From a virus (taxonomy: Duplodnaviria; Caudoviricetes), in the IMG/VR virus record IMGVR_UViG_3300033177_000258: a stretch of DNA of 64,000 bases. One strand, written 5' to 3'. The notes beneath the pieces were generated by a model, which saw only the letters and a program-made list of their open reading frames with translations, had not been told where the DNA came from and did not search any database. This document shows, one piece after another, positions 2,135-51,829 of the stretch (its first letter is position 1; each line of letters begins with the position of its first letter). A program made the position numbers and the translations under genes.

Positions 2135-5100
2135 ATGAGTAGTTCGCCGAATCACGGGTTTGTGAACCTGCACGTCCATTCCGAGTACAGCGCGATGGAC
2201 GGCGTAAGTACGTGCAAAGAGTTGGTGAAGCGCGTCGGGGTGCTCGGGCAGACGGCCCTGGCTCTCACGGACCATGACGGTCTGTACGGCGCGGTTGACA
2301 TCTGCGAGAGCGCCTTGGCGAAGGATGTCAAGCCCATCGTTGGTTGCGAACTGCGGTTCGTGCCCGACATCTCCGAGAAGGTGCGGGGCTGGCACATCAC
2401 TGCTCTGGCGCTGACGGAGCAGGGGTACCGCAACCTCTGCGACTTGGTGACGGAAAGCTACCGCCCCAAGAACTTCTTCTACAGCCCCCGCATCCCTCTG
2501 CAGTCGCTTCTGGAACGACAGGAGGGTTTGGCGCTGCTCTCTGGCTGCTGGTTCGGGTACCCGGCCCAGACCTACGAGCAGACCGTCCACGGCGGCCGCG
2601 ACCGGATGGCTCAATTCCAGGAAATCACCAGCGCTCTGCAGTCGGCCTACGGCGAGCGCTTCCTCTTCGAGCTCTTCACTGGCGACTACGCCCATTCTCG
2701 CGAGGCCATCACGTTCCTGCTCGACGCCTCGGCCAAGTGGGGCATCAAGACTGTTGCGACCAACGACTCCCACTTCGCCGCCCCCGAGGACTGGCGCAAG
2801 GCGGAGTTGATACGTCGCATCCGCATGAAGGGCAAGGACGAAGAGGGCAATGCCATGCCCCAGCACCAGTACCTCATGGGTGAGCAGGAAATGCGCACAC
2901 TGCTCCCAGAGGAAGCGGTGGACAACACGGTGATGGTGGCCGGCTGGGCGGAGTACGCCTTGGACCTGGCCATTGACCGAGAGGGCCACGTGCTGCTGGA
3001 CAAAGTGCTGCAGCGCCTGCCGAAGCTGCCTCTGGCTGAGGGACAGACGGAGTGGGGCGCATTCATTGAGGCCATCAAGCAGGGGTGGCAGAAGAGGATG
3101 GGCTACCTCACCGAGGAGCAGCGGCCCATCTACCACGAACGTCTACTGCGGGAAATCGAGGTCTTCAAAGAGACCGGCCTGGCCGGCTATATGCTCATTG
3201 TGGCCGCGATGACCGATTACTGCGCGGAAAACGGCATCCTGCGGGGCCCCGGCCGAGGCTCGGCGTCAGGGTCCCTGTGCTCCTTCCTGCTGGGTATCAC
3301 CGACCTTGACCCCATAGCCTCCGGCTTGTTCTTCGAGCGGTTCCTGGACGCCCGGCGCGCCAGCATGCCAGACATTGATGTGGACTACGACCCGGACGAC
3401 CGGGAGCGTGTGTTCGCCTATCTGCAGCGGACGTATGGTGTTGACCACGTGGCGCGCATCCTGACCTTCCAGCGGTTGGTGGGTAGCAGCGCGGTCAAAG
3501 ACGTGGGCTCCATGATGGGGGTCAGCTACGACGAGCTCAACAAGCTCACTTCGGCCATCGAGGACTTCGATGAACTGGATGTGAGCGAAGGCGCCCCGCC
3601 CTCCGACAAGAACAAGGAGGCGCTCGGGGTCATCGCTCAGAACCCGGACCTCGCAGCGGTGGTGCAGCAGGCCAAGCTGATTTCTGCCGACGAGAAGACC
3701 AAGACCAAAGGGGTCATCCGTCAGGTAGGTGCCCATGCGGCCGGCGTGGTTATCGCCCCCGGCCCGGTGCGCTACCTCTCTCCCACCCAGCTCACCAAGC
3801 GCGATAGCAACCTGGAAGTCTTCCAGTGGGACATGGGCGCAGTAGACAAGATGGGTCTGCTGAAGATTGACGTTCTCAACGTCAGGACCCTCGGCATGGC
3901 GCGCGACATCATCAGCCTGGTCAAGAAGCGGCATGGGGTGGAGCTCGACTGGTACTCTATCCCAGTCGAAGACCCCGCCGCCTACGAAATGGCCGGGCGC
4001 GGTCGCACTACCGCCATCTTCCAGCTTGAGAAGCGCACGGCCCAGGAGCCACTGAAGAAGATTAAGCCCAACTCGCTGTTGGACTTGGCTGTCGTTCTGG
4101 CGCTCAACCGTCCGGGCCCCATGGAGTACATGGAAGAGTACGCCATCTGCAAGAACGACCCGTCGCAGATAACCTACGACCTGCGCGAATGGGAGTCGGT
4201 GCTGGCCGAGACTTACGGCATCATGGTCTACCAGGAGCAGGTCATCCAAGCCCTGCAGGCGCTGGGATTCGACTTCACCGAAGCCGACGACTTCCGCCGA
4301 GGGATGGCCAAGAAGAAGCAGGACCTCATCGAGGCGGCCAAACTCAGGGTCGTGCCCAAGATAATCGAGCGTGGGTACTCCGAAGCTCACGCTGAAGCCG
4401 TCTGGGCGAAGATAGCCAAGTTCGGCGGCTACGCGTTCAACAAAGCGCATGCTGTGGCGTATGGCGCGATTTCCGCCCGCATGCTGTACCTGAAGACCCA
4501 CTACCCTGCGGAGTACATGGCAGCCGCTCTGACCTCCCAGGACAAAGAGGAGTTCTTCACCAGATACATCGAGGAAGTCTCGCGCCTGGGTCTGCGCTTG
4601 CTGCCTCCCGACATCAACGAGGCCAGCGAGAGCTTCACTCCAAGCGACGGCGCTGTGCGGTTCGGTTTCTCTCAGATTTCCCACATCGGCGCCGTCGCCA
4701 AGGCCATAGTGGCGGCCCGCCTGGTCCGCCCCCGAGGATGGCGCGGGCCCGAGCCGGAGAACGGGGTGTACCCGTACCAAGACCCACTAGACTTCTGCCG
4801 GCGCCTGAAAGACCACGGCATGAACCGGCGCCAGTTGGATGCTCTGGTCTGGGCTGGGGCGTTCGACGCCTTCTGCCCTTCGCGGGCTTTCCTGGCCGAC
4901 AAGGTTGACCAACTCATGGGCATGGCGAAAGCCGGCCGCACCTCAGTGGAGGCTTTGGTGACGTGGGAGTCTCTGTTGGCGGACGCGGAACTGCGCCCCG
5001 ATGACGAGGACCTGCTGGCCGACAAGGAGCAGGAGTTGTTGCGCTGCTCGCCGCGTCGCATGGCGCAGGACATCAGTTTGCGTGAGCGCATAGGAAAGGG

Positions 5101-37414: not shown

Positions 37415-37490
37415 CGCGGGGATAAGCCAGGCAGGCTACAACGTCTCATTAGCGTTGAATGACCGGGTTGGAGTCCCGGCCCCGCTACCA
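37415..37490 (+). tRNA. Atypical initiator-like tRNA-Met(CAT)
   Basis: CGCGGGG/CCCCGCT acceptor, AACGT-CTCATTA-GCGTT, CCGGG-TTGGAGT-CCCGG, ACCA end. Confidence 0.7.
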
Positions 37491-37548
37491 AAGTACCTTG
37501 ACATCTGAAACTTTTCCAGTGCTACCCATGACGTGGGTTCGATTTTGC

Positions 37549-37558
37549 GGAATACTTC
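37549..37558 (+). promoter_or_regulatory. GGAATACTTC motif upstream of the LAGLIDADG-like gene
   Basis: GGAATACTTC-N5-GGTGATG-ACCA-ATG. Confidence 0.65.
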
Positions 37559-37574
37559 TCTCTGGTGATGACCA

Positions 37575-38267
37575 ATGGCTAAGCCGGAATTGAGAGAGAA
37601 GGCCCGAGCGCTCAGGCGTGAGGGCAAGTCCGTGAAGTACATCCAGAAAGCACTCGGGGTATCTTCGTCATCTGTCAGTAGATGGGTGAAGAGCGTTGAG
37701 CTAACTGAAGAGCAGAAGCAAGCACTGCGGGATGCCAGCGGCGGAGACCGGCGTGCGCTTGTAGGCGAAGAGGCATTGGCCAAACGCAGGGAGCGCGCCG
37801 AGCAGCGGTGGAAGCAGGCAGAAGAAGAGGCGGAGAAGCAGTGGCCCGAGCTCGTCAAAGACCCGCTCTTTGGTATCGGGCTGGGCTGCTACATCGGCGA
37901 AGGCACCAAAGGCAACGGCGTAGTGACTATCTGCAACTCCGACCTGTTTGTTGTCAAGAACTTCATCGAGTTCAGCCGGCTAATCGGCGCCGACATAGAC
38001 AGGATGAGGCTTACGGTGCACATGGCCTACGACCCGACCCCGGAGCAGCGAAAAGCTGTTCTTGAGCACTGGCTCGCAGGCTTGGGCGTCTCTCCTTCGC
38101 AGTTGGCTCCTCAACCAATAATACTGAAGCGGGGAGCCGGTCCACTCCGCAATGGCGGTGAAGGTTCTCGGCGTAGCCTGCTGTATGGAGTTGCGCGTTT
38201 TGGTTGCACAGACGTTCAACTCAGTAAGAAGCTGCACTGGTGGATGCGTAAAGCACTGGGAAAGTGA
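37575..38267 (+). CDS. HTH plus LAGLIDADG-like putative endonuclease
   Basis: N-terminal HTH (GKSVKYIQKALGVSSSSVSRWV); 'GLGCYIGEGTK...ICNSD'. Confidence 0.65.
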   Translation: MAKPELREKARALRREGKSVKYIQKALGVSSSSVSRWVKSVELTEEQKQALRDASGGDRRALVGEEALAKRRERAEQRWKQAEEEAEKQWPELVKDPLFGIGLGCYIGEGTKGNGVVTICNSDLFVVKNFIEFSRLIGADIDRMRLTVHMAYDPTPEQRKAVLEHWLAGLGVSPSQLAPQPIILKRGAGPLRNGGEGSRRSLLYGVARFGCTDVQLSKKLHWWMRKALGK

Positions 38268-38278
38268 AGATGTTAGTA

Positions 38279-38353
38279 CGCGGGGAGCGTGTTGGCTCGC
38301 CAGCGTGGCCCATTACCACGCCTACCCACGTTCGATTCGTGGCCCCGCTCCCA
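38279..38353 (+). tRNA. Atypical initiator-like tRNA-Met(CAT)
   Basis: CGCGGGG/CCCCGCT, CGTGG-CCCATTA-CCACG, CCACG-TTCGATT-CGTGG, CCA; irregular D arm. Confidence 0.7.
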
Positions 38354-38458
38354 TATTTCGACTGAGGCAAACCCATGTCCGCGCTGCTTAGCCCAGGCCC
38401 GCTCCTGGGCGAGCGATAGACGCAACCATCTGCACAAGGGAAGGAGAGCACCAAGACA

Positions 38459-40396: not shown

Positions 40397-41053
40397 ATGA
40401 GCAAAGTTATGGAGCATTGGGCGCGGGTTAGGGCTGATTACGACGCGAGCCCCAACCTATGTACTGCACCGGGCTGCAATAAGCCGCTGCCGTTCGAGAA
40501 GCGCAACAACAAGTTCTGCGGTTGCTCGTGTGCTGCCAAGGTGAATAACGCTGGTCGCTGCAAGAACCCGCAGGGTTGTAATGGCCATCCTCGTCGCTTG
40601 ACCCCAGGCCCGTGCCCGGTCTGTGGCGGGGACGTACCCAGGGGCGCAAAGTATTGTTGCTCCGACTGCTATAAGGTTGGCCAGTGGAAGGAAAGGGTAG
40701 CGCTCATAGAAGCTACGGGCGTGGCGCCCGAGCTGAACGAGAACCACCAGCGCAAGGTGATGCGCCGCTACCTCATCGAGAAGTACGGCCACAGGTGTTC
40801 GGTTTGCGGCGGGAGAAAGTGGCGGGGTGCGCCCATCCCATTGGTGGTAGACCACATTGACGGTGACCCATCCAACCGAGCGGTAGCCAACTATCGCATG
40901 GTCTGCCCCAACTGCGATGCTCAGTCGCCTACGTACTGCGGTCGCAACAAATGCAACGGGCCGTCAAGAGACTGGCGGTACGGCAAGACAGACCCCCGTA
41001 CCCATCGCGTAAATAGCCCTCGTGGCCGAGAGGACCAGGTGCCCGCCTCCTAA
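40397..41053 (+). CDS. HNH endonuclease with N-terminal zinc fingers
   Basis: CSVC..W.G.PIPL.VDHIDG...N....CPNC; TAA stop lies in the tRNA-Arg(CCT) anticodon loop. Confidence 0.88.
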   Translation: MSKVMEHWARVRADYDASPNLCTAPGCNKPLPFEKRNNKFCGCSCAAKVNNAGRCKNPQGCNGHPRRLTPGPCPVCGGDVPRGAKYCCSDCYKVGQWKERVALIEATGVAPELNENHQRKVMRRYLIEKYGHRCSVCGGRKWRGAPIPLVVDHIDGDPSNRAVANYRMVCPNCDAQSPTYCGRNKCNGPSRDWRYGKTDPRTHRVNSPRGREDQVPAS

Positions 41054-41101
41054 GCGGGGCTCTTCGGAGCAACGTAGGTTCGAATCCTACCGAGGGCACC
41101 A
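41016..41101 (+). tRNA. tRNA-Arg(CCT) with long variable arm
   Basis: GCCCTCG/CGAGGGC, CCCGC-CTCCTAA-GCGGG, V-arm GCTC-TTCG-GAGC. Confidence 0.88.
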
Positions 41102-41727: not shown

Positions 41728-42147
41728 ATGACCGCCGAGGTCAGTTACGACCCCAAGTTCGACCGGACGGATGAGGAGCTCCAGGCGTTCATGCTGTTCG
41801 CCATGATGGAGCCGGTGAAGCCCATGTTCGCGGACTTCGATGTCAACCAGGTCCAGCTCAGTCTGGAGTTCCGCCGCGTCAAGGCCCGGCCTTCTGACGA
41901 GTTGATGGCGCGGGCCCAGGCCATCATCCTGGAGCAGGCGGAGCGGGAGCTGTTCTCGATGTTCGCCCTGCCGGCCGATGCTCTGCAGATGACCTCGGAC
42001 AGAGGCGGGAGCTACGTCACCGCGCAGGCAATGCGCGAGCAGATAGAACGAATGCGAGGCCTCCGAGCCCGCGAGAAGACTGCCCCTTTCGATGGGCTCA
42101 GCCATGACGAAGCAATGAAGCGGCTCTTAGATGTTGCTGCCGGATAG
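41728..42147 (+). CDS. Hypothetical protein
   Basis: Collinear ORF; TAG stop lies inside the tRNA-Gln stub. Confidence 0.65.
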   Translation: MTAEVSYDPKFDRTDEELQAFMLFAMMEPVKPMFADFDVNQVQLSLEFRRVKARPSDELMARAQAIILEQAERELFSMFALPADALQMTSDRGGSYVTAQAMREQIERMRGLRAREKTAPFDGLSHDEAMKRLLDVAAG

Positions 42148-42162
42148 CCAAGTTGGTAATGC
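42138..42162 (+). pseudogene. 5' stub of tRNA-Gln
   Basis: TGCCGGATAGCCAAGTTGGTAATGC vs TGCCGGATAGCCAAGTGGTACGGC at 42730. Confidence 0.85.
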
Positions 42163-42210
42163 GCTGCTCAAGTATCCCGAATAGTGTCTTACCACAACCA
42201 TAGCCAGCAC

Positions 42211-42220
42211 GGAATACTTC
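42211..42220 (+). promoter_or_regulatory. GGAATACTTC motif upstream of HNH
   Basis: GGAATACTTC-N5-GGTGATG-GAA-ATG. Confidence 0.65.
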
Positions 42221-42235
42221 ATGTTGGTGATGGAA

Positions 42236-42739
42236 ATGCAGAAGCGAAGCATTATCTGGCGCTTGCCGTCGAACGAGTTCCGAGAATTGGTTGCGTCCTG
42301 CGACACGTATGCGGAAGTGCTGCGGCATTTTGGCATGCTGCACAAGGGCGGGAACCACAACACCCTCAAGAGACGTATCCAACATGAAGGCATAGACGCG
42401 TCCCATCTTGAGGAAGGCGGTGCCCGACGTTCCAGAGAAGCGCTTGGGCGCTCCAGCAAGGGGCTTAGGCTTTCAGACGAAGATGTCTTCCGCGAAGGGT
42501 CCACCTACTGCCGCTACAATCTGAAGCGGCGTATCTTGGAGCAGGGTCTCATACCTTATGTGTGCGGGGTATGCGGCATGGGGCCAGAGTGGAATGGCAA
42601 GCCCATCTCTCTACCATTGGACCACATCAACGGTGTGTCTGACGACCACCGTTTGGAGAATCTGCGTTTTCTGTGCCCCAATTGCCACGCCCAGACGGAG
42701 ACGTTTGGGAGGCGAAAAAGGGGTGGTGTTGCCGGATAG
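42236..42739 (+). CDS. HNH endonuclease
   Basis: CGVC..EWNGKPISL.LDHING...ENLRFLCPNCH; stop inside tRNA-Gln. Confidence 0.92.
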   Translation: MQKRSIIWRLPSNEFRELVASCDTYAEVLRHFGMLHKGGNHNTLKRRIQHEGIDASHLEEGGARRSREALGRSSKGLRLSDEDVFREGSTYCRYNLKRRILEQGLIPYVCGVCGMGPEWNGKPISLPLDHINGVSDDHRLENLRFLCPNCHAQTETFGRRKRGGVAG

Positions 42740-42803
42740 CCAAGTGGTACGGCAATCGGCTCTGGACCGATGACCGCTGGTTCGACCCCAGCTCCGGCAA
42801 CCA
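42730..42803 (+). tRNA. tRNA-Gln(CTG)
   Basis: U1-A72, ATCGG-CTCTGGA-CCGAT, ACCA. Confidence 0.93.
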
Positions 42804-42860: not shown

Positions 42861-42954
42861 GCTCGCGTAGTCGAATTGGTTTCAGACGGCAGCCTTTCAA
42901 GCTGCGGCATGGTGGAAACACCCAATGCGGGTTCGAATCCCGTCGCGAGTACCA
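42861..42954 (+). tRNA. tRNA-Glu(TTC) with long variable arm
   Basis: GCTCGCG/CGCGAGT, GCAGC-CTTTCAA-GCTGC, 21-nt variable region containing GGTG-GAAA-CACC. Confidence 0.85.
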
Positions 42955-43216: not shown

Positions 43217-43966
43217 ATGGCATTTAGACGCAGCAAGATATGGCTTGTACCGGAAGACGAGTTCCGGCGCTTGGTGGCAGACGCCGCATCGCGTTCTGAC
43301 ATCCTGGTATCACTCGGTTTCGCTGTTGGCTCGGGGGGGTATCGGGTCCTCAACGACCGCATCGCAGAGTTGGGGTTGAGCACAGAGCATTTCGCGGAGC
43401 GCTCCTACGAGAAGCGCAAGTCAGCTCTTCTGGCGGCTTCTAAGCCGAAAAGACCTATAGAAGAGTTGCTGGTAGAGGGCGCGAACAACCACTCTGCCGG
43501 CCTAAAGAAGAAGCTCATCGAAGAGGGCATCTTACCTAACATGTGTTCGGAGTGTGGCGCCCTGCCAGAGTGGAACGGGAAACCGCTGTCGTTGCAATTG
43601 CACCACCGCAACGGCAGACGGGGCGATGACCGAAAAGAGAACCTCTGTCTGCTCTGTCCCAACTGTCGCAGCCAGACGCCCAACTTCTCGGGGCGCGGCA
43701 AGAGGCAAGAGACTAAGCGCTGCGCCTGTGGGACGCCCATCCATAAGTCATCACTGCGCTGCAGGAAGTGTGCCGGTGCGGACCTTAAGCACCACCACCG
43801 CAAAGTAGAAGAGCGGCCATCGAGTGGGGTTCTCCTGCAAGAAGTGTCTGCCGCGAACTATGAAGCCGTGGGGCGCAGATATGGGGTGACAGGTAGGACC
43901 ATCAAGGACTGGCTCATTGCCGATGGCATAGAGCCTCCTCGGAAGCACAAAGCTCGCGTGGTGTAG
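43217..43966 (+). CDS. HNH endonuclease with C-terminal zinc finger and HTH
   Basis: EWNGKPLSLQLHHRNG...ENL..LCPNC; stop inside tRNA-Glu(CTC). Confidence 0.9.
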   Translation: MAFRRSKIWLVPEDEFRRLVADAASRSDILVSLGFAVGSGGYRVLNDRIAELGLSTEHFAERSYEKRKSALLAASKPKRPIEELLVEGANNHSAGLKKKLIEEGILPNMCSECGALPEWNGKPLSLQLHHRNGRRGDDRKENLCLLCPNCRSQTPNFSGRGKRQETKRCACGTPIHKSSLRCRKCAGADLKHHHRKVEERPSSGVLLQEVSAANYEAVGRRYGVTGRTIKDWLIADGIEPPRKHKARVV

Positions 43967-44039
43967 CGGCCGAACATCTCCGGTTCTCAACCGGAAGACC
44001 GAGAAGGTTACGCGGGTTCGAATCCCTCCGCGAGTACCA
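43952..44039 (+). tRNA. tRNA-Glu(CTC) with long variable arm
   Basis: GCTCGCG/CGCGAGT, TCCGG-TTCTCAA-CCGGA, V-arm GACC-GAGAA-GGTT. Confidence 0.87.
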
Positions 44040-46464: not shown

Positions 46465-47505
46465 ATGGCGCCCCCGTGTTCTCTTCCGTGGATTAACCTC
46501 CAGACCACCAGCGACCTGCTGTACAACTGCTGCTACCAAACAGAATTGAGCAGCAGCCGGTCTTGGCATAGCGGTCACTGTTGGGAGTACGCTGAAGGGC
46601 GCGAGCCGCTGGAGCTGGTCAACTTCCCAGAAGGAGTGGCCCTACGCAGGAGCATCGCGAGCGGCGGCGTACTCGGTGCCTGCGGCGGCAACCGGCGTTG
46701 TCCCCGGCCTTCAATGGACGTGTACGACGGCCGCCGTCTCGATGGGCAGAGCCCCGACTACTACAGCAACTACGACCGTCTTAGGGCAGAGTGGGAAGCC
46801 GGCCAGGATGTCCTGACCGCTTTCCCCACTACCTACAGCTTCGTACTAGGGGGTAACTGCAATCTTGGCTGCCCCATGTGCCCCTCCGACCGGGCGACGC
46901 CTCGGGACTACCCGTGGATGCCGCTGGAAGTGGCTGAGAAGTTCCGGGTCTTCTTGCCTTACGCGTCGGAATGGTCGGTCTCGGGCGGCGAGCCCCTGTT
47001 GGCCCCATTCACCCTCCTCGACACCATGCTGCCGCCCCCGGCTGAGCGCGAGAAGTCGTACATCAACACGAACCTGTGCATCGGTAGCGGGCGGGTCGAA
47101 CAGCTATCGCAGCGCATCGGGTTGTTCGTGGTTTCGCTGCACGCGCTCGACCAGGCGATGGCCAGCTACATCCAGCCTGGGGTGGACCTTGCTTTGGTCC
47201 TCAGGAACATCAGGACCGTCTCCCAGCTTTCCCAGGTTTCCGTCGTGACGGTGGTTCGGGCATGCAACCTTGGCCAGCTCCGTTTCTTCCCAGACATGCT
47301 GAAGCAGATGGGTGTACGCGACTGGTGGGTTACACCGATGGTAGACTATGGACGGCTCGACAAGTCCGAGTTCGCCATGGGGCCCAACGTCAGCCATGAA
47401 CAGACCGAGCGCACTGAGAAGATACTCCTGGACGTACAACATCACTGCGAAGAGCTAGGGCTCCCATGTATACTGATGGGTGTTAGAGGCTCAGGAGACG
47501 GCTAA
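46465..47505 (+). CDS. Radical SAM protein (paralog of 31484..32518)
   Basis: CSLPW..CC N-terminus; CNLGCPMC; SGGEP. Confidence 0.87.
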   Translation: MAPPCSLPWINLQTTSDLLYNCCYQTELSSSRSWHSGHCWEYAEGREPLELVNFPEGVALRRSIASGGVLGACGGNRRCPRPSMDVYDGRRLDGQSPDYYSNYDRLRAEWEAGQDVLTAFPTTYSFVLGGNCNLGCPMCPSDRATPRDYPWMPLEVAEKFRVFLPYASEWSVSGGEPLLAPFTLLDTMLPPPAEREKSYINTNLCIGSGRVEQLSQRIGLFVVSLHALDQAMASYIQPGVDLALVLRNIRTVSQLSQVSVVTVVRACNLGQLRFFPDMLKQMGVRDWWVTPMVDYGRLDKSEFAMGPNVSHEQTERTEKILLDVQHHCEELGLPCILMGVRGSGDG

Positions 47506-48182
47506 TGTTCGAACCGAAGAACCTACGAGGCGTAGATGTATACCGTGGGGATGGCGTCATCAACTGGCAGAAGGTCTACAATGACGGGGTGCGCTTCGCC
47601 TGCATCAAGGCGACCGAAGGCGTCACCATCACGGACGCCAGGATGTTCTACAACCTGACGGAGGCGCGCAAAGCCGGCCTCTACTGCGGTCTTTACCACT
47701 ACTTCCTGCCGACCGGGAACGCGTGGGCGCAGTCCGAGTATTACATGGAGGCGGTGCGGAAGGCGGTGGGGGCGAAGACGAAGAAGGAAGCATTCAGCAA
47801 CCTGCTGGTGCCTTTGCTGGACCTGGAAGACGCCGGCGACATGGAAGACGAGGCCCTGGTCAACTCAGCACTGGCCTTCATCAAGCACGTGCAGGAGACC
47901 ATCGGGCGCGGGTGCATCGTGTACACGTACCCCTACTTCATCACCGAACACCTCGTGGAAGCCAGCAAGGCACGCTACCTGGCCGGCTACCCGCTGTGGA
48001 TTGCCAGCTACCCGAAGGATGGCCAGCCGGGGCGCCCCTACATCCCGGCGCTATGGAAGACGGCAACGATGCAGCAGTACACGGACCACGGCTCGCAGCC
48101 GGGCATCCCTCGCAACGGTGGCGTGGACCTGGACGTGTTCTTCGGCGACGCGCAGGCCATGGAGCACTTCGTCGTGCACTAA
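47505..48182 (+). CDS. GH25 muramidase (endolysin)
   Basis: GVDVY, IKATEG, YHYF, LDLE, LWIASY, QYT, VDLD. Confidence 0.92.
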   Translation: MFEPKNLRGVDVYRGDGVINWQKVYNDGVRFACIKATEGVTITDARMFYNLTEARKAGLYCGLYHYFLPTGNAWAQSEYYMEAVRKAVGAKTKKEAFSNLLVPLLDLEDAGDMEDEALVNSALAFIKHVQETIGRGCIVYTYPYFITEHLVEASKARYLAGYPLWIASYPKDGQPGRPYIPALWKTATMQQYTDHGSQPGIPRNGGVDLDVFFGDAQAMEHFVVH

Positions 48183-49007: not shown

Positions 49008-49092
49008 TGCTCTGCGGTCCTTGGCCCAGCACAGAGACTGTGGTTCGATGTACCACTGGGCCGAGCGGACCATTCGGGAGTTGTTGTCGTAG
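48880..49092 (+). CDS. Hypothetical protein
   Basis: GAGGAG SD; stop overlaps G1 of the tRNA. Confidence 0.55.
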   Translation: MAKLSPAFVERQLMVYYAVLSAQELKALYPSMGKTQLRQHRRSALRSLAQHRDCGSMYHWAERTIRELLS

Positions 49093-49168
49093 GGCCCTTA
49101 GCTCAGAAGAGTAGAGCAGCGTGCTCATAATACGCAGGCCGCTGGTTCGAGTCCAGCAGGGCCCACCA
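49092..49168 (+). tRNA. tRNA-Ile2(CAT) (Met not excluded)
   Basis: GGGCCCT acceptor and Ile2-like body; GCGTG-CTCATAA-TACGC. Confidence 0.85.
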
Positions 49169-49172
49169 TTGA

Positions 49173-49192
49173 GCCGGTATAACTCAGTAGGT
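49173..49192 (+). pseudogene. 5' stub of tRNA-Thr
   Basis: GCCGGTATAACTCAGTAGGT vs GCCGGTGTACCTCAGTAGGC at 49911. Confidence 0.8.
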
Positions 49193-49248
49193 GATACAGC
49201 CATTGCGGCCCCCACGGAGCAGTTTTTTGTCATTGAGTTACACAGCGC

Positions 49249-49258
49249 GGAATACTTC
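49249..49258 (+). promoter_or_regulatory. GGAATACTTC motif upstream of HNH
   Basis: GGAATACTTC-N5-GGTGATG-ACCA-ATG. Confidence 0.65.
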
Positions 49259-49274
49259 CGTTAGGTGATGACCA

Positions 49275-49928
49275 ATGCCAGATTGCTTGAAGTGTGGGGC
49301 CCATTTCCCTAACTGGGTTTCCATAGACGGAGTCAAGAAGAACTTGGCTTCCCGTAAGTATTGTCTCGACTGCTCTCCTTGGGGCGAACACAATACCAAG
49401 CCGCTGCACGGCAATACGGGACCCACATCTAAGATATACCAGGTTCCAGAAGAAGAGTTTAGGAAGATTGTTGCTAAGAGCCCGTCGTACTCAGCCGCCA
49501 TCCGCTCTATCGGGATGTTCCCGTACCCAGGGCACTACCGGACGCTGAAGCGACGCATAGCCGAGTGCGGCATAGATGTCAGCCACATGGTTGAGGGCCG
49601 AGCGCAGATTAGTAGAAGCATCTCGCGCGCTGCCGGCGCAAGACGGCGCCGGCCGATTTCCGACTACTTGGTTGAACATAGCTCTCTGCCGGGTGTCACG
49701 CTCAAGAAAAGACTCATTGCTGAGGGTTTCATAGAGGAGAAGTGCGACGAGTGCGGTATGGGCCCAGAGTGGAACGACAAGCCGCTCTCTCTCCATCTAG
49801 ACCACATCAACGGAGTGCACGACGACGCGCGCCCAGAGAATCTTAGACTACTTTGCCCCAATTGCCACTCGCAGACCGATACCTATGCGGGACGTAATAG
49901 GAAGAAAAGGGCCGGTGTACCTCAGTAG
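49275..49928 (+). CDS. HNH endonuclease with N-terminal zinc finger
   Basis: EWNDKPLSLHLDHING...ENLRLLCPNCHSQT; stop inside the tRNA-Thr D-loop. Confidence 0.92.
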   Translation: MPDCLKCGAHFPNWVSIDGVKKNLASRKYCLDCSPWGEHNTKPLHGNTGPTSKIYQVPEEEFRKIVAKSPSYSAAIRSIGMFPYPGHYRTLKRRIAECGIDVSHMVEGRAQISRSISRAAGARRRRPISDYLVEHSSLPGVTLKKRLIAEGFIEEKCDECGMGPEWNDKPLSLHLDHINGVHDDARPENLRLLCPNCHSQTDTYAGRNRKKRAGVPQ

Positions 49929-49986
49929 GCAGAGGAGGGCACTTGTAATGCTCGCGCCGCCCGTTCGAATCCCTCTGCCGGCTCCA
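49911..49986 (+). tRNA. tRNA-Thr(TGT) with mismatched T stem
   Basis: GCCGGTG/TGCCGGC, GGGCA-CTTGTAA-TGCTC, T stem GCCCG/CCCTC. Confidence 0.75.
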
Positions 49987-49997
49987 TCCGTTTCCTC

Positions 49998-50026
49998 TTG
50001 ACACCATTCTCCCTTATTGGTACCAT
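49998..50026 (+). promoter_or_regulatory. Sigma70-type promoter
   Basis: TTGACA-17-TACCAT with TGn extension. Confidence 0.75.
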
Positions 50027-50050: not shown

Positions 50051-51829
50051 ATGCAGCTTGACCTCTTCGGAGAGAAGAAGCAACTCACCTATACTTTCAC
50101 CCACCACACCGTGGTGCTCAACCCGGTCGAGCCAGACCTCATCAAACTCACCGGGGGCCGCGTCACTGCTGCTGGTTTGGAAGTCCCCTACTTCCGCTGG
50201 CCCGAGGTCTCCAAAGCATTGGGCTTCGGGCTCCCCCAGGTAGACCAATTCCTTGGCGTCCTGAGCTCTGCTAAGCAGCAGGCGCCGGATGGTCTCAGCA
50301 TCCCCCAGACCCCCTTCTACCACCACCAGAAAGTCGGCATCAACTTCATGTACTCAGCCCTGTCGTCCATGGGCTATGTGGCCAACCACGACGAGCAGGG
50401 GCTGGGCAAGACCCTCCAGGCCATCGTGACGGCCGACATGGGCCGTGTGGCCTGGGGCGCCAGCAAGGTGTTGGTGCTGTGCCCGGCCTACCTGGTGCGC
50501 CAGTGGGCACGCGAAATCATCAAGTTCTCGTACAGCCCGGTGCTGGCTGTGCCGGGGGATTTCGAGGCTAAGCGCAAGGCGGAGTACCTGGGGACGCTGG
50601 GCTACATCACCAGCATGGACAACAAGCGCCGGCTGCGCTGGGAGAAGGGCGAACCCTACTTCGTTGTGATGGGCTACGACAGCCTGCGCAGCAAGCCGAT
50701 GCTGGCGGCCGCGCTGTCCCATACCTGGGACCTGGCCATCCTGGACGAAATCACCTGCGCCTACAACTACAAAACCCAGCGCGGCAAGGGTACCCGGTGG
50801 GTTCTGGGCCGAGCTCTCAAGCGCATCGGCCTGACGGGTACGCCCGTCATGAACCGCCCTATGGATGTTTGGTCGGAACTCGACCTGCTGTCGGGCATGG
50901 CCCCGCCTGAGCCCTGGTTCGTGGACCGCTACTGCGTGGTGCGCAAGACCAATGTGGAACTCAAGGGGCGGCAGGACGCAGACGGCAACCCGGTCAACAT
51001 TGACATCAGCTACATCAAGGGCTGGAAGAAGCGCAAGACGCCCGAGCTGGCTCCCGCCATCGAGCGCGTGAGCATCCGGCGCCGGCGCGCTGAGGCGACA
51101 GACCTGCCTCCCATCCAGTACCGGGTCTTGACGGTTGAGCTGGCCGACAAGCAGAAGTCTGCCTACAACAGCATCGCCGAGAGCGGCATGGCGGTGGTGG
51201 GGAACTGTCAGATAGACGCTACCAGCAGCGACCTGACGAAGCTGACGTACCTGCGCATCGCGGCCGATGGTCTGCAGCACTGGGGGGTTCGCGCCAGCGG
51301 CAAAGCCGACGCGGCCCTGGAAATGCTCAAGGACAGCGAAGGGACCCCGACGCTCGTCTTCACGGCGTTCGAGAAGCTGGCTCACGACATCTACGAGCGT
51401 GCCTGCAAAGAGGGTCTGCGCTGTGGCATAGCCACCGGGGAAGAGACGGCACAACAGCGCGACGAGGTGATGGTGGCGTTCCAGGACCGGCAGGAACTTG
51501 ACGTGGTGGTCACGACATACCAGGCCACCCAGTTCGGGCTCAACCTGCAGCGGGCGGAGCACGTCATCCTCTGCGGTATGATGTACAACCCGAAGATGAT
51601 GGAGCAGTCCATCACTCGCGCCCACCGTCTCGGCGGCTCCAGCAAGACGCTGGTGACCCTGCTGCTGTCGGAGGGCACCGTGGACGACCATATCTTCAAC
51701 AACATCATCGGGGACAAGGCCGAGCTCATTGAGACGCTCAAGGTGGCCGGAGACATCGAAGCCATGATGAAGCAAGAGCCGCAAGCCTACATCCCCGAGC
51801 CCAAACGGAAGCGAAAGACCAATGGGTGA
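50051..51829 (+). CDS. SNF2-family helicase
   Basis: DEQGLGKT, ILDE, LTGTP..N, GLNLQ, Q..RAHRLG. Confidence 0.92.
   Translation: MQLDLFGEKKQLTYTFTHHTVVLNPVEPDLIKLTGGRVTAAGLEVPYFRWPEVSKALGFGLPQVDQFLGVLSSAKQQAPDGLSIPQTPFYHHQKVGINFMYSALSSMGYVANHDEQGLGKTLQAIVTADMGRVAWGASKVLVLCPAYLVRQWAREIIKFSYSPVLAVPGDFEAKRKAEYLGTLGYITSMDNKRRLRWEKGEPYFVVMGYDSLRSKPMLAAALSHTWDLAILDEITCAYNYKTQRGKGTRWVLGRALKRIGLTGTPVMNRPMDVWSELDLLSGMAPPEPWFVDRYCVVRKTNVELKGRQDADGNPVNIDISYIKGWKKRKTPELAPAIERVSIRRRRAEATDLPPIQYRVLTVELADKQKSAYNSIAESGMAVVGNCQIDATSSDLTKLTYLRIAADGLQHWGVRASGKADAALEMLKDSEGTPTLVFTAFEKLAHDIYERACKEGLRCGIATGEETAQQRDEVMVAFQDRQELDVVVTTYQATQFGLNLQRAEHVILCGMMYNPKMMEQSITRAHRLGGSSKTLVTLLLSEGTVDDHIFNNIIGDKAELIETLKVAGDIEAMMKQEPQAYIPEPKRKRKTNG

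Follow-up and report, generated by a model that had tools for sequence, protein, structure and literature searches.

Free-standing homing endonucleases encoded in transfer RNA (tRNA) gene clusters are already known from phages, namely SegB of T4 and the F-Tfl enzymes of T5. SegB of T4 is a free-standing GIY-YIG homing endonuclease whose gene lies in a tRNA gene cluster; its recognition of DNA requires the T-arm motif GGTTCRANTCC, its target is found inside the tRNA genes of nuclease-free relatives, and it drives co-conversion of flanking tRNA sequence, such co-conversion tracts being standard in homing (PMC2330249). The stop codon of segB is located at the start of a tRNA-Arg gene, and tRNA processing has been proposed to cut the segB mRNA (PMC2330249). 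The F-Tfl nucleases of T5 are mentioned in the same source, in passages citing earlier work, as HNH-family enzymes of a phage tRNA cluster for which expression control by tRNA processing has been proposed (as cited in PMC2330249). Here we describe a unit of comparable organisation at positions 49173-49986 of a 64,000-nucleotide (nt) stretch of viral DNA (IMG/VR record IMGVR_UViG_3300033177_000258; the whole stretch is referred to below as the window), in which an HNH homing-endonuclease gene lies between the 5' stub of a tRNA-Thr-like gene and a full tRNA-Thr(TGT) gene with a defective T stem.

The evidence supports the view that this unit is a free-standing HNH cassette that overwrote a tRNA-Thr gene in the tRNA array of a jumbo phage. 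Our verdict is that the scar in its tRNA is real and linked to the homing endonuclease, the mismatched tRNA being a local by-product of the cassette process. The T-stem defect itself is, on balance, probably a scar left by recombination or repair associated with the HNH. The order of the elements is a 19-nt 5' remnant of an earlier tRNA-Thr, a promoter-like site, the HNH gene and, overlapping its end, the full tRNA-Thr:

49173-49191, plus strand: 5' stub of a tRNA-Thr-like gene, GCCGGTATAACTCAGTAGG (sequence read directly; 17/19 identical to 49911-49929)
49227-49256, plus strand: promoter-like site TTGTCA-18-AATACT, which includes the conserved motif GCGCGGAATACTTC (promoter scan)
49275-49928, plus strand: HNH homing-endonuclease gene, 217 amino acids (list of open reading frames; Pfam; PHROG)
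49911-49986, plus strand: tRNA-Thr(TGT) copy with a defective T stem (ARAGORN structure)
49959-49963, plus strand: 5' strand of the T stem, GCCCG, an unusual strand (0/346 phage tRNAs)
49964-49975, plus strand: T loop TTCGAAT and 3' strand of the T stem, CCCTC (49971-49975), of ordinary sequence

Like segB, the HNH gene of the window lies among phage tRNA genes and has an open reading frame (ORF) that ends at or in the next tRNA. The window enzyme would work like SegB but belongs to another family, the fold of SegB being GIY-YIG and that of the window enzyme HNH; Pfam and PHROG returned matches to HNH families only, and no GIY-YIG catalytic domain was found. On the other hand, segB lies between intact tRNA genes, and it has not been described with a 5' stub, a duplicated tRNA end or a tRNA with mismatches. 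The part of the tRNA-Thr that is equivalent to the T-arm motif of SegB reads CGTTCGAATCC. The F-Tfl genes of T5 resemble the window gene as HNH-family genes inside a phage tRNA cluster, a likeness by description in the citing passages and not by sequence. The open literature gave no description of a nuclease cassette that leaves a 5' tRNA stub and supplies a replacement tRNA copy, nor of a tRNA whose stem mismatch marks a joint. Stubs or chimeric tRNAs are not known to us from any report on the T5 F-Tfl nucleases.

The stub and the broken tRNA-Thr

The stub consists of the 5' strand of the acceptor stem, U8-A9, the 5' strand of the D stem and the D loop up to G18-G19. Of its 19 positions, 17 agree with the first 19 nt of the tRNA-Thr, an agreement for which the chance expectation in the window is 0.01, and the similarity stops at about position 20. 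The two differences are at position 7 (A in the stub, G in the tRNA-Thr) and position 10 (A in the stub, C in the tRNA-Thr). Because C10 is compensated by G25, the 5' part of the tRNA-Thr is coherent, and at least positions 1-25 are of other origin than the stub.

In the T stem of the tRNA-Thr only two of the five pairs form (49-65 and 53-61), the remaining positions being a C.U (50-64) and two C.C mismatches (51-63 and 52-62), and shifting the register of the stem restores no pairing on direct reading. The acceptor stem contains the wobble pairs U6.G67 and G7.U66, the latter of which would be a Watson-Crick pair with the A7 of the stub. The D stem is intact (4/4), as is the anticodon stem with four Watson-Crick pairs and one G.U, and U8, A14, G18-G19, U33, G53, the T loop TTCGAAT and C61 are all kept. 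The sequence-only reading had pointed to the unpaired GCCCG/CCCTC stem, to the G7-U66 pair with its better partner A7 in the stub and to the start of the stub 4 nt after the CCA of the preceding tRNA (CAT anticodon); the ARAGORN structure and the sequence bear out all three, the last corresponding to a spacer of TTGA. A smaller T-stem mismatch that it had reported in tRNA-Glu(CTC), GCGGG/CCCTC, is present as well, as a single C.U.

The extent of the defect was assessed against 307 distinct phage tRNAs from 80 related loci, of which 293 have no T-stem mismatch, 13 have one, one has two and none has three. The T-stem defect of the tRNA-Thr is thus far outside the normal range. The gene does not form the four-stem cloverleaf with a 5-bp T stem that characterises a functional tRNA, and its Rfam RF00005 score of 31.0 bits, above the gathering score of 29, is the lowest of the nine window tRNAs scored, the other eight reaching 46-63 bits. 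When folded computationally, the cloverleaf has an energy of -14.9 kcal/mol, compared with -22.6 kcal/mol for a minimum free energy (MFE) structure that is not a cloverleaf, and it reaches -28 to -31 kcal/mol when either strand of the T stem alone is restored. The stability of the fold is not above that of shuffled sequences (z = +0.8). Judging from these predicted folds, the tRNA-Thr most likely does not adopt a cloverleaf and is probably a dead or crippled gene.

All three mismatches are next to each other within one stem. If placed at random among the 21 stem pairs, all three would fall in the T stem in 10 of 1330 cases (our own arithmetic). The adjacency of the mismatches, the intact state of the other stems and loops, the 0/307 count and the rescue by either strand fit a single block event rather than slow decay. 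Together with the compensated C10-G25 pair, they agree with the exchange of one strand for which the sequence-only reading argued. Random decay was rejected as the main cause, given the adjacent mismatches in one stem and an otherwise intact gene.

The two strands of the stem are not equally unusual. CCCTC is the commonest 3' strand of the T stem (29 of 346 phage tRNAs) and its partner GAGGG is common (19/346), and GCCCG, or any CCC at positions 50-52, occurs in none of the 346. The abnormal half is therefore the one that a working donor is supposed to have supplied. The 12 nt of TTCGAAT-CCCTC are identical to positions 44016-44027 in tRNA-Glu(CTC).

Within the tRNA-Thr, GGCAGAGG (positions 18-25, 49928-49935) is perfectly complementary over 8 bp to CCUCUGCC (positions 62-69, 49972-49979), a complementarity of the D arm with the 3' strand of the T and acceptor stems (GGCAGAGG/CCTCTGCC). 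This 8-bp helix is the core of the MFE structure, and a non-canonical helix of this length occurs in 2 of 348 phage tRNAs. The complementarity prompted us to consider a template switch at a quasi-palindrome as the origin of the 3' strand, an idea that was dropped, CCCTC being the normal strand and GCCCG the odd one.

The HNH gene and its relatives

The HNH protein matches Pfam PF01844 over residues 157-200 (23 bits, cut-off 21.4) and PHROG 10822 (E 7e-43). Residues C157, C160, H177, N179, N189, C194 and C197 are invariant in the alignment of 17 homologues, and the N-terminus contains a CxxC...CxxC zinc-ribbon-like region. The final 18 nt of the ORF are positions 1-18 of the tRNA-Thr, with the TAG stop at positions 16-18. 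Since the stop codon lies inside the tRNA, RNase P processing would strip it from the HNH message, as proposed for segB. Protein look-ups gave no record of an alternative start or an antisense ORF for the stretch.

Relatives of the protein in IMG/VR (34-48% identity) are closely associated with tRNA genes: a tRNA lies within 1.5 kb in 79 of 80 loci, and in 36 of the 80 a tRNA on the same strand has its start within -20 to +132 nt of the HNH stop codon, mostly at 10 nt or less. In cultured phages, homologues were found in the tRNA clusters of Pakpunavirus LCK69, Schiekvirus EFDG1 and the cyanophage S-CRM01.

Comparable cassettes in the window and in EFDG1

The window contains a second unit of the same type, which served as comparator:

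42138-42803, plus strand: cassette of a tRNA-Gln stub, a paralogous HNH gene and an intact tRNA-Gln (16/16 repeat)

In this cassette, the stub at 42138-42153, reaching to about 42158, is followed by an HNH paralogue (42221-42739) that shares 48% identity with the HNH of the tRNA-Thr unit and by an intact tRNA-Gln (42730-42803) with a fully paired T stem. The 16-mer TGCCGGATAGCCAAGT occurs at 42138 and at 42730 with 16/16 identity (0.02 expected by chance), the second copy being the start of the tRNA-Gln. Similarity of the tRNA-Gln stub extends to about position 21 if one inserted base is allowed; as the stub similarities end at about positions 20 and 21, the Thr and Gln cassettes both break in the D loop. 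Two more HNH genes of PHROG 10822 end inside tRNA-Arg(CCT) and tRNA-Glu(CTC), and in total three window HNH genes besides that of the tRNA-Thr unit have their stop codon at or in the next tRNA. The stop codon of the HNH gene in the tRNA-Gln cassette is formed by U8-A9-G10 of the intact tRNA-Gln. The TAG of the tRNA-Gln stub also terminates an upstream ORF (41728-42147), and the protein of a sister contig (P0137) ends likewise.

A case with observable parents is provided by Enterococcus phage EFDG1 (Schiekvirus, NC_029009, HNH gene at 47304-47825), which we compared with the HNH-free phages vB_OCPT_Ben and vB_OCPT_Bop. The EFDG1 enzyme is homologous to the window HNH (32% identity, E 2e-12), and its gene is flanked upstream by a 34-nt stub of a long-arm tRNA-Leu(TAG) and downstream by a complete short-arm tRNA-Leu(TAG). 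Ben, without an HNH gene, carries the whole long-arm allele at the same site, and Bop, likewise HNH-free, has the whole short-arm allele; the flanks of EFDG1 are of the Ben type, and from the T stem onwards to the 3' end the two tRNA-Leu(TAG) alleles do not differ. The arrangement thus resembles that of the window: the HNH gene is preceded by a stub of the resident tRNA and followed by a complete tRNA with the same anticodon, of which its ORF covers 50 nt in EFDG1 and 18 nt in the window. The EFDG1 stub of 34 nt breaks in the anticodon loop, whereas that of the window breaks in the D loop, and in EFDG1 both parental alleles are seen and the downstream tRNA is intact. The EFDG1 tRNA has no mismatch because the T arms of the two alleles are identical. 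Read from these alleles, the comparison shows that a cassette with a homologous enzyme entered a resident tRNA gene, leaving a 5' stub and bringing the 5' part of another allele joined to a common 3' part. The general model of the sequence-only reading, in which an HNH cassette overwrites a resident tRNA and brings a full copy, is supported by the tRNA-Gln cassette and by EFDG1 compared with Ben and Bop.

The HNH-linked tRNA-Leu(TAG) allele (L077 1663-1736 in EFDG1; L079 534-609 in Bop) is 74-76 nt long and has no long variable arm, the feature that defines leucine tRNAs; the allele of Ben (L080) has the long arm.

Genomic context and search for parental alleles

The window has a G+C content of about 60% and is a piece of a large uncultured phage. 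Its tRNA array spans 37.4-50 kb, of which 49173-49986 is the last unit, with the following flanks:

49092-49168, plus strand: tRNA with CAT anticodon, resident upstream neighbour (called Met by ARAGORN, ends in CCA; Rfam 63.2 bits)
49998-50026, plus strand: sigma-70-like promoter (promoter scan, 10/12 match)
50051-51829, plus strand: SNF2-type helicase gene, resident downstream flank and query for relatives (ORF list)

The pairs C4-G69 and C5-G68 of the tRNA(CAT) fit a lysidine-type tRNA-Ile2 by the TilS determinants.

Searches of 50,697 phage records (BLASTN, TBLASTN) gave no close relative among cultured phages, with generic tRNA and HNH matches only, and the helicase search of IMG/VR gave no match above 28% identity. 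With the helicase as query, JGI metagenomes yielded one locus, L066 (52% identical), and one fragment; L066 retains the small upstream gene, an orthologous tRNA(CAT) in the same slot (4902-4978) and the helicase. In the protein database, the window helicase is also encoded on a 215-kb contig, a helicase relative (P0002) is 73% identical, and three other contigs encode an identical HNH. The HNH protein (P0007) is recorded on these 3 contigs (Logan, ENA; the longest 61 kb), and all tested neighbour proteins of the HNH are encoded on 4 contigs, one of which is the 215-kb JGI contig. That the record of the JGI contig lacks the HNH may reflect an HNH-free strain, or a missed gene call in a record that is probably that of the window itself.

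Exact scans of IMG/VR for the predicted donor T arm, GCCCGTTCGAATCGGGC, together with the matching acceptor strand, and for the D arm gave no match. The broken T arm gave three chance matches in non-tRNA sequence with no tRNA call, and the resident-type 3' end gave one tRNA-Tyr and no tRNA-Thr. In GTDB genomes, the 5' end of the tRNA-Thr gave two chance matches, and none of the 366 tRNAs of the fetched loci resembles either predicted parent. A pair of parental alleles with a mapped exchange point, as would define co-conversion, did not emerge from IMG/VR, GTDB or the fetched loci. Elsewhere in the window there is no template for GCCCG, the best inverted match being 4 bp with no second copy.

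Origin of the T-stem defect

We propose that the HNH enzyme would cut or nick HNH-free tRNA-Thr genes and that the HNH-bearing genome would serve as the repair template from which the cassette is copied in. On the left, the joint would be located in the D loop, matching its position in the paralogous tRNA-Gln cassette; on the right, the T arm would be the place of the second joint or of a repair scar. The common D-loop break of the Thr and Gln stubs is a hint that the enzyme may cleave the nuclease-free allele at, or close to, the site of its insertion. In this scheme the mismatches would either mark where a co-conversion tract stopped within the T loop or result from damage to, or alteration of, the 5' strand of the T stem at or after insertion. 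The defective tRNA-Thr may persist through its linkage to a self-propagating nuclease gene and through the dispensability of phage tRNAs. The scar that we favour thus comprises two sub-cases, a strict chimera and a change in place.

The strict chimera, which we regard as a tentative possibility, would have arisen from two intact tRNA-Thr alleles by exchange in the T loop, TTCGAATC. The donor would have supplied positions 1-53 along with the HNH gene (G7, C10-G25 and GCCCG, from a T stem GCCCG/CGGGC), and the resident positions 54-76, from a T stem GAGGG/CCCTC, its 5' end being the stub. Consistent with this, all pairs within positions 1-43 are intact and the defects are limited to pairs joining the 5' part to positions 61-72. 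Besides, C10 is matched by G25, unlike the A10 of the stub, CCCTC is ordinary and its usual partner GAGGG common (29 and 19 of 346, respectively), EFDG1 joins an HNH-linked 5' tRNA part to a 3' part common with the resident allele, and co-conversion tracts are standard in homing (PMC2330249). However, the donor strand C50-C51-C52 that is needed has no counterpart among the 346 phage tRNAs (0/346), the GCCCGTTCGAATCGGGC donor arm with its acceptor strand is absent from the exact scan of IMG/VR, the scans with the D arm and the resident-type 3' end gave no tRNA-Thr, identity in the exchange region is only about 9-13 nt, and neither parental allele was found.

In the change in place, the less likely of the two sub-cases, the 5' strand would originally have read GAGGG or GGGGG and been altered to GCCCG, with loss of tRNA function, either through a multi-base repair error near the cut site or through a selected escape from HNH recognition (GGTTCGAATCC to CGTTCGAATCC). 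This sub-case fits the observation that the odd strand is the 5' strand, the 3' strand being the commonest known, and T4 SegB, with its need for GGTTCRANTCC, is a precedent for a nuclease that reads the T arm (PMC2330249). Moreover, the tRNA-Thr and the tRNA-Glu(CTC), both of which follow paralogous HNH genes, have T arms identical at 15 of 17 positions, with C50 facing U64 in both. The abnormal 5' half, this likeness of the T arms and the motif requirement of SegB make the change in place a serious rival. Against it, three adjacent transversions in one event would be rare and there is no local template, the tRNA-Gln and tRNA-Arg that follow other HNH paralogues keep the normal GGTTCGA, and the T stems of the HNH-adjacent tRNAs in IMG/VR are normal in 36 of 36 cases. 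As for the tRNA-Glu(CTC), for which the sequence-only reading had also suggested a crossover origin, a single point change explains its mismatch equally well.

Several observations weigh against the proposed scar as a whole. L066 has neither an HNH gene nor a tRNA-Thr, with 10 nt between its tRNA(CAT) and its helicase gene, and the stub is therefore the sole witness to a resident tRNA-Thr at this site. As the scans gave no tRNA-Thr allele of the HNH-free or donor type, the parental sequences are not established. The lack of a counterpart to GCCCG in 346 phage tRNAs is awkward for an origin from a working donor, the normal T stems of all 36 HNH-adjacent tRNAs imply that T-stem scars are not a regular product of the HNH family, and the bases of the tRNA-Thr are known from an uncultured assembly alone.

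An assembly or sequencing artefact, in which the true T arm would be paired and wrong bases or a join of strain variants would have produced the mismatches, is very unlikely in our assessment. The uncultured origin of the window speaks for it, as does the 215-kb JGI contig, which holds all neighbours and on which the HNH is not recorded, making strain variation at the locus possible. Yet three specific substitutions within 5 nt would be an unusual type of error, the identity of variants around the T loop is far below assembler k-mers, and the assemblies of three further contigs (Logan, ENA) encode the identical HNH protein. Least probable of all is a functional non-cloverleaf or re-wired RNA, for example with GGCAGAGG paired to CCUCUGCC and the mismatch as a design feature, which would accommodate the perfect 8-bp helix at the MFE core, one of only two of such length among 348 phage tRNAs, but is weakened by a stability no better than that of shuffled sequences (z = +0.8) and by the lack of the same broken T arm in any IMG/VR tRNA, its three exact matches being non-tRNA, no homologues having been found for a covariation test.

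Implications

If the mismatch is a true crossover, the locus preserves, base by base, a homing event that took place in an uncultured phage, and it would indicate that selfish nucleases can kill, and not just shuffle, the tRNA genes they carry along. With the parental alleles missing, the result is a modest one at the level of a single locus. Annotators should be aware that the tRNA-Thr at this position is probably a pseudogene.

A more speculative reading, which we consider unlikely, is that the copy travelling with the HNH gene is a pair-flipped tRNA-Thr immune to the nuclease (C10-G25 for G10-C25; C50-C52/G62-G64 for the G-rich/C-rich pairing) and that the present gene is a half-converted hybrid of this copy with the resident. 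If true, this would reveal that the nuclease reads its target at the D arm and the T arm, with a co-conversion tract of about 35-40 nt, and selfish nucleases would be seen to have a general means of recoding the genes of structured RNAs that spares these genes.

Other features of the tRNA array

The nuclease genes are preceded by a common promoter-like and ribosome-binding motif, GCRCRGAATACTTC...GGTGATGA..ATG. The first part, GCRCRGAATACTTC, is matched 10 times in the window, where chance would give 0.97, and five of these sites lie directly before nuclease ORFs:

958, 5391, 37545, 40358, 42207, 43187, 49245 and 62817, plus strand: matches to GCRCRGAATACTTC
21934 and 55248, minus strand: matches to GCRCRGAATACTTC

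Because matches also occur elsewhere in the window, the motif looks like a phage promoter. GCRCRGAATACTTC probably represents a class of phage promoters, with AATACT as the likely -10 box, five copies of which would serve the nuclease genes of the tRNA array.

The genes for tRNA-Glu(TTC) (42861-42954) and tRNA-Glu(CTC) (43952-44039) flank an HNH gene and agree in their first 8 nt and in 32 of the 34 nt at the 3' end, which make up the T arm and acceptor. Their D arms, anticodon arms and variable regions are unrelated, as if a foreign core had been placed in a common frame.

Two initiator-like, tRNA-shaped sequences with a CAT anticodon and the same acceptor stem, CGCGGGG/CCCCGCU, lie within 37415-38354 and flank an ORF (37575-38267) with an N-terminal helix-turn-helix domain and a LAGLIDADG-like motif recognised by eye only. 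The second copy (about 38279-38354) is not called as a normal tRNA by ARAGORN or Rfam, and the intron mode of ARAGORN gives instead a doubtful 'tRNA-Asn with 495-nt intron'.

Class I isotypes (Arg, Glu, Thr, Gly, Cys and Ile) with long variable arms, 83-94 nt in length, are found repeatedly, both here and in unrelated phages of IMG/VR whose HNH genes belong to the same clade:

41016-41101, 42861-42954 and 43952-44039 of the window: class I tRNAs with a long variable arm
L089 1127-1212, L139 1223-1308, L136 1175-1259, L104 899-982 and L126 3400-3490: class I tRNAs with a long variable arm

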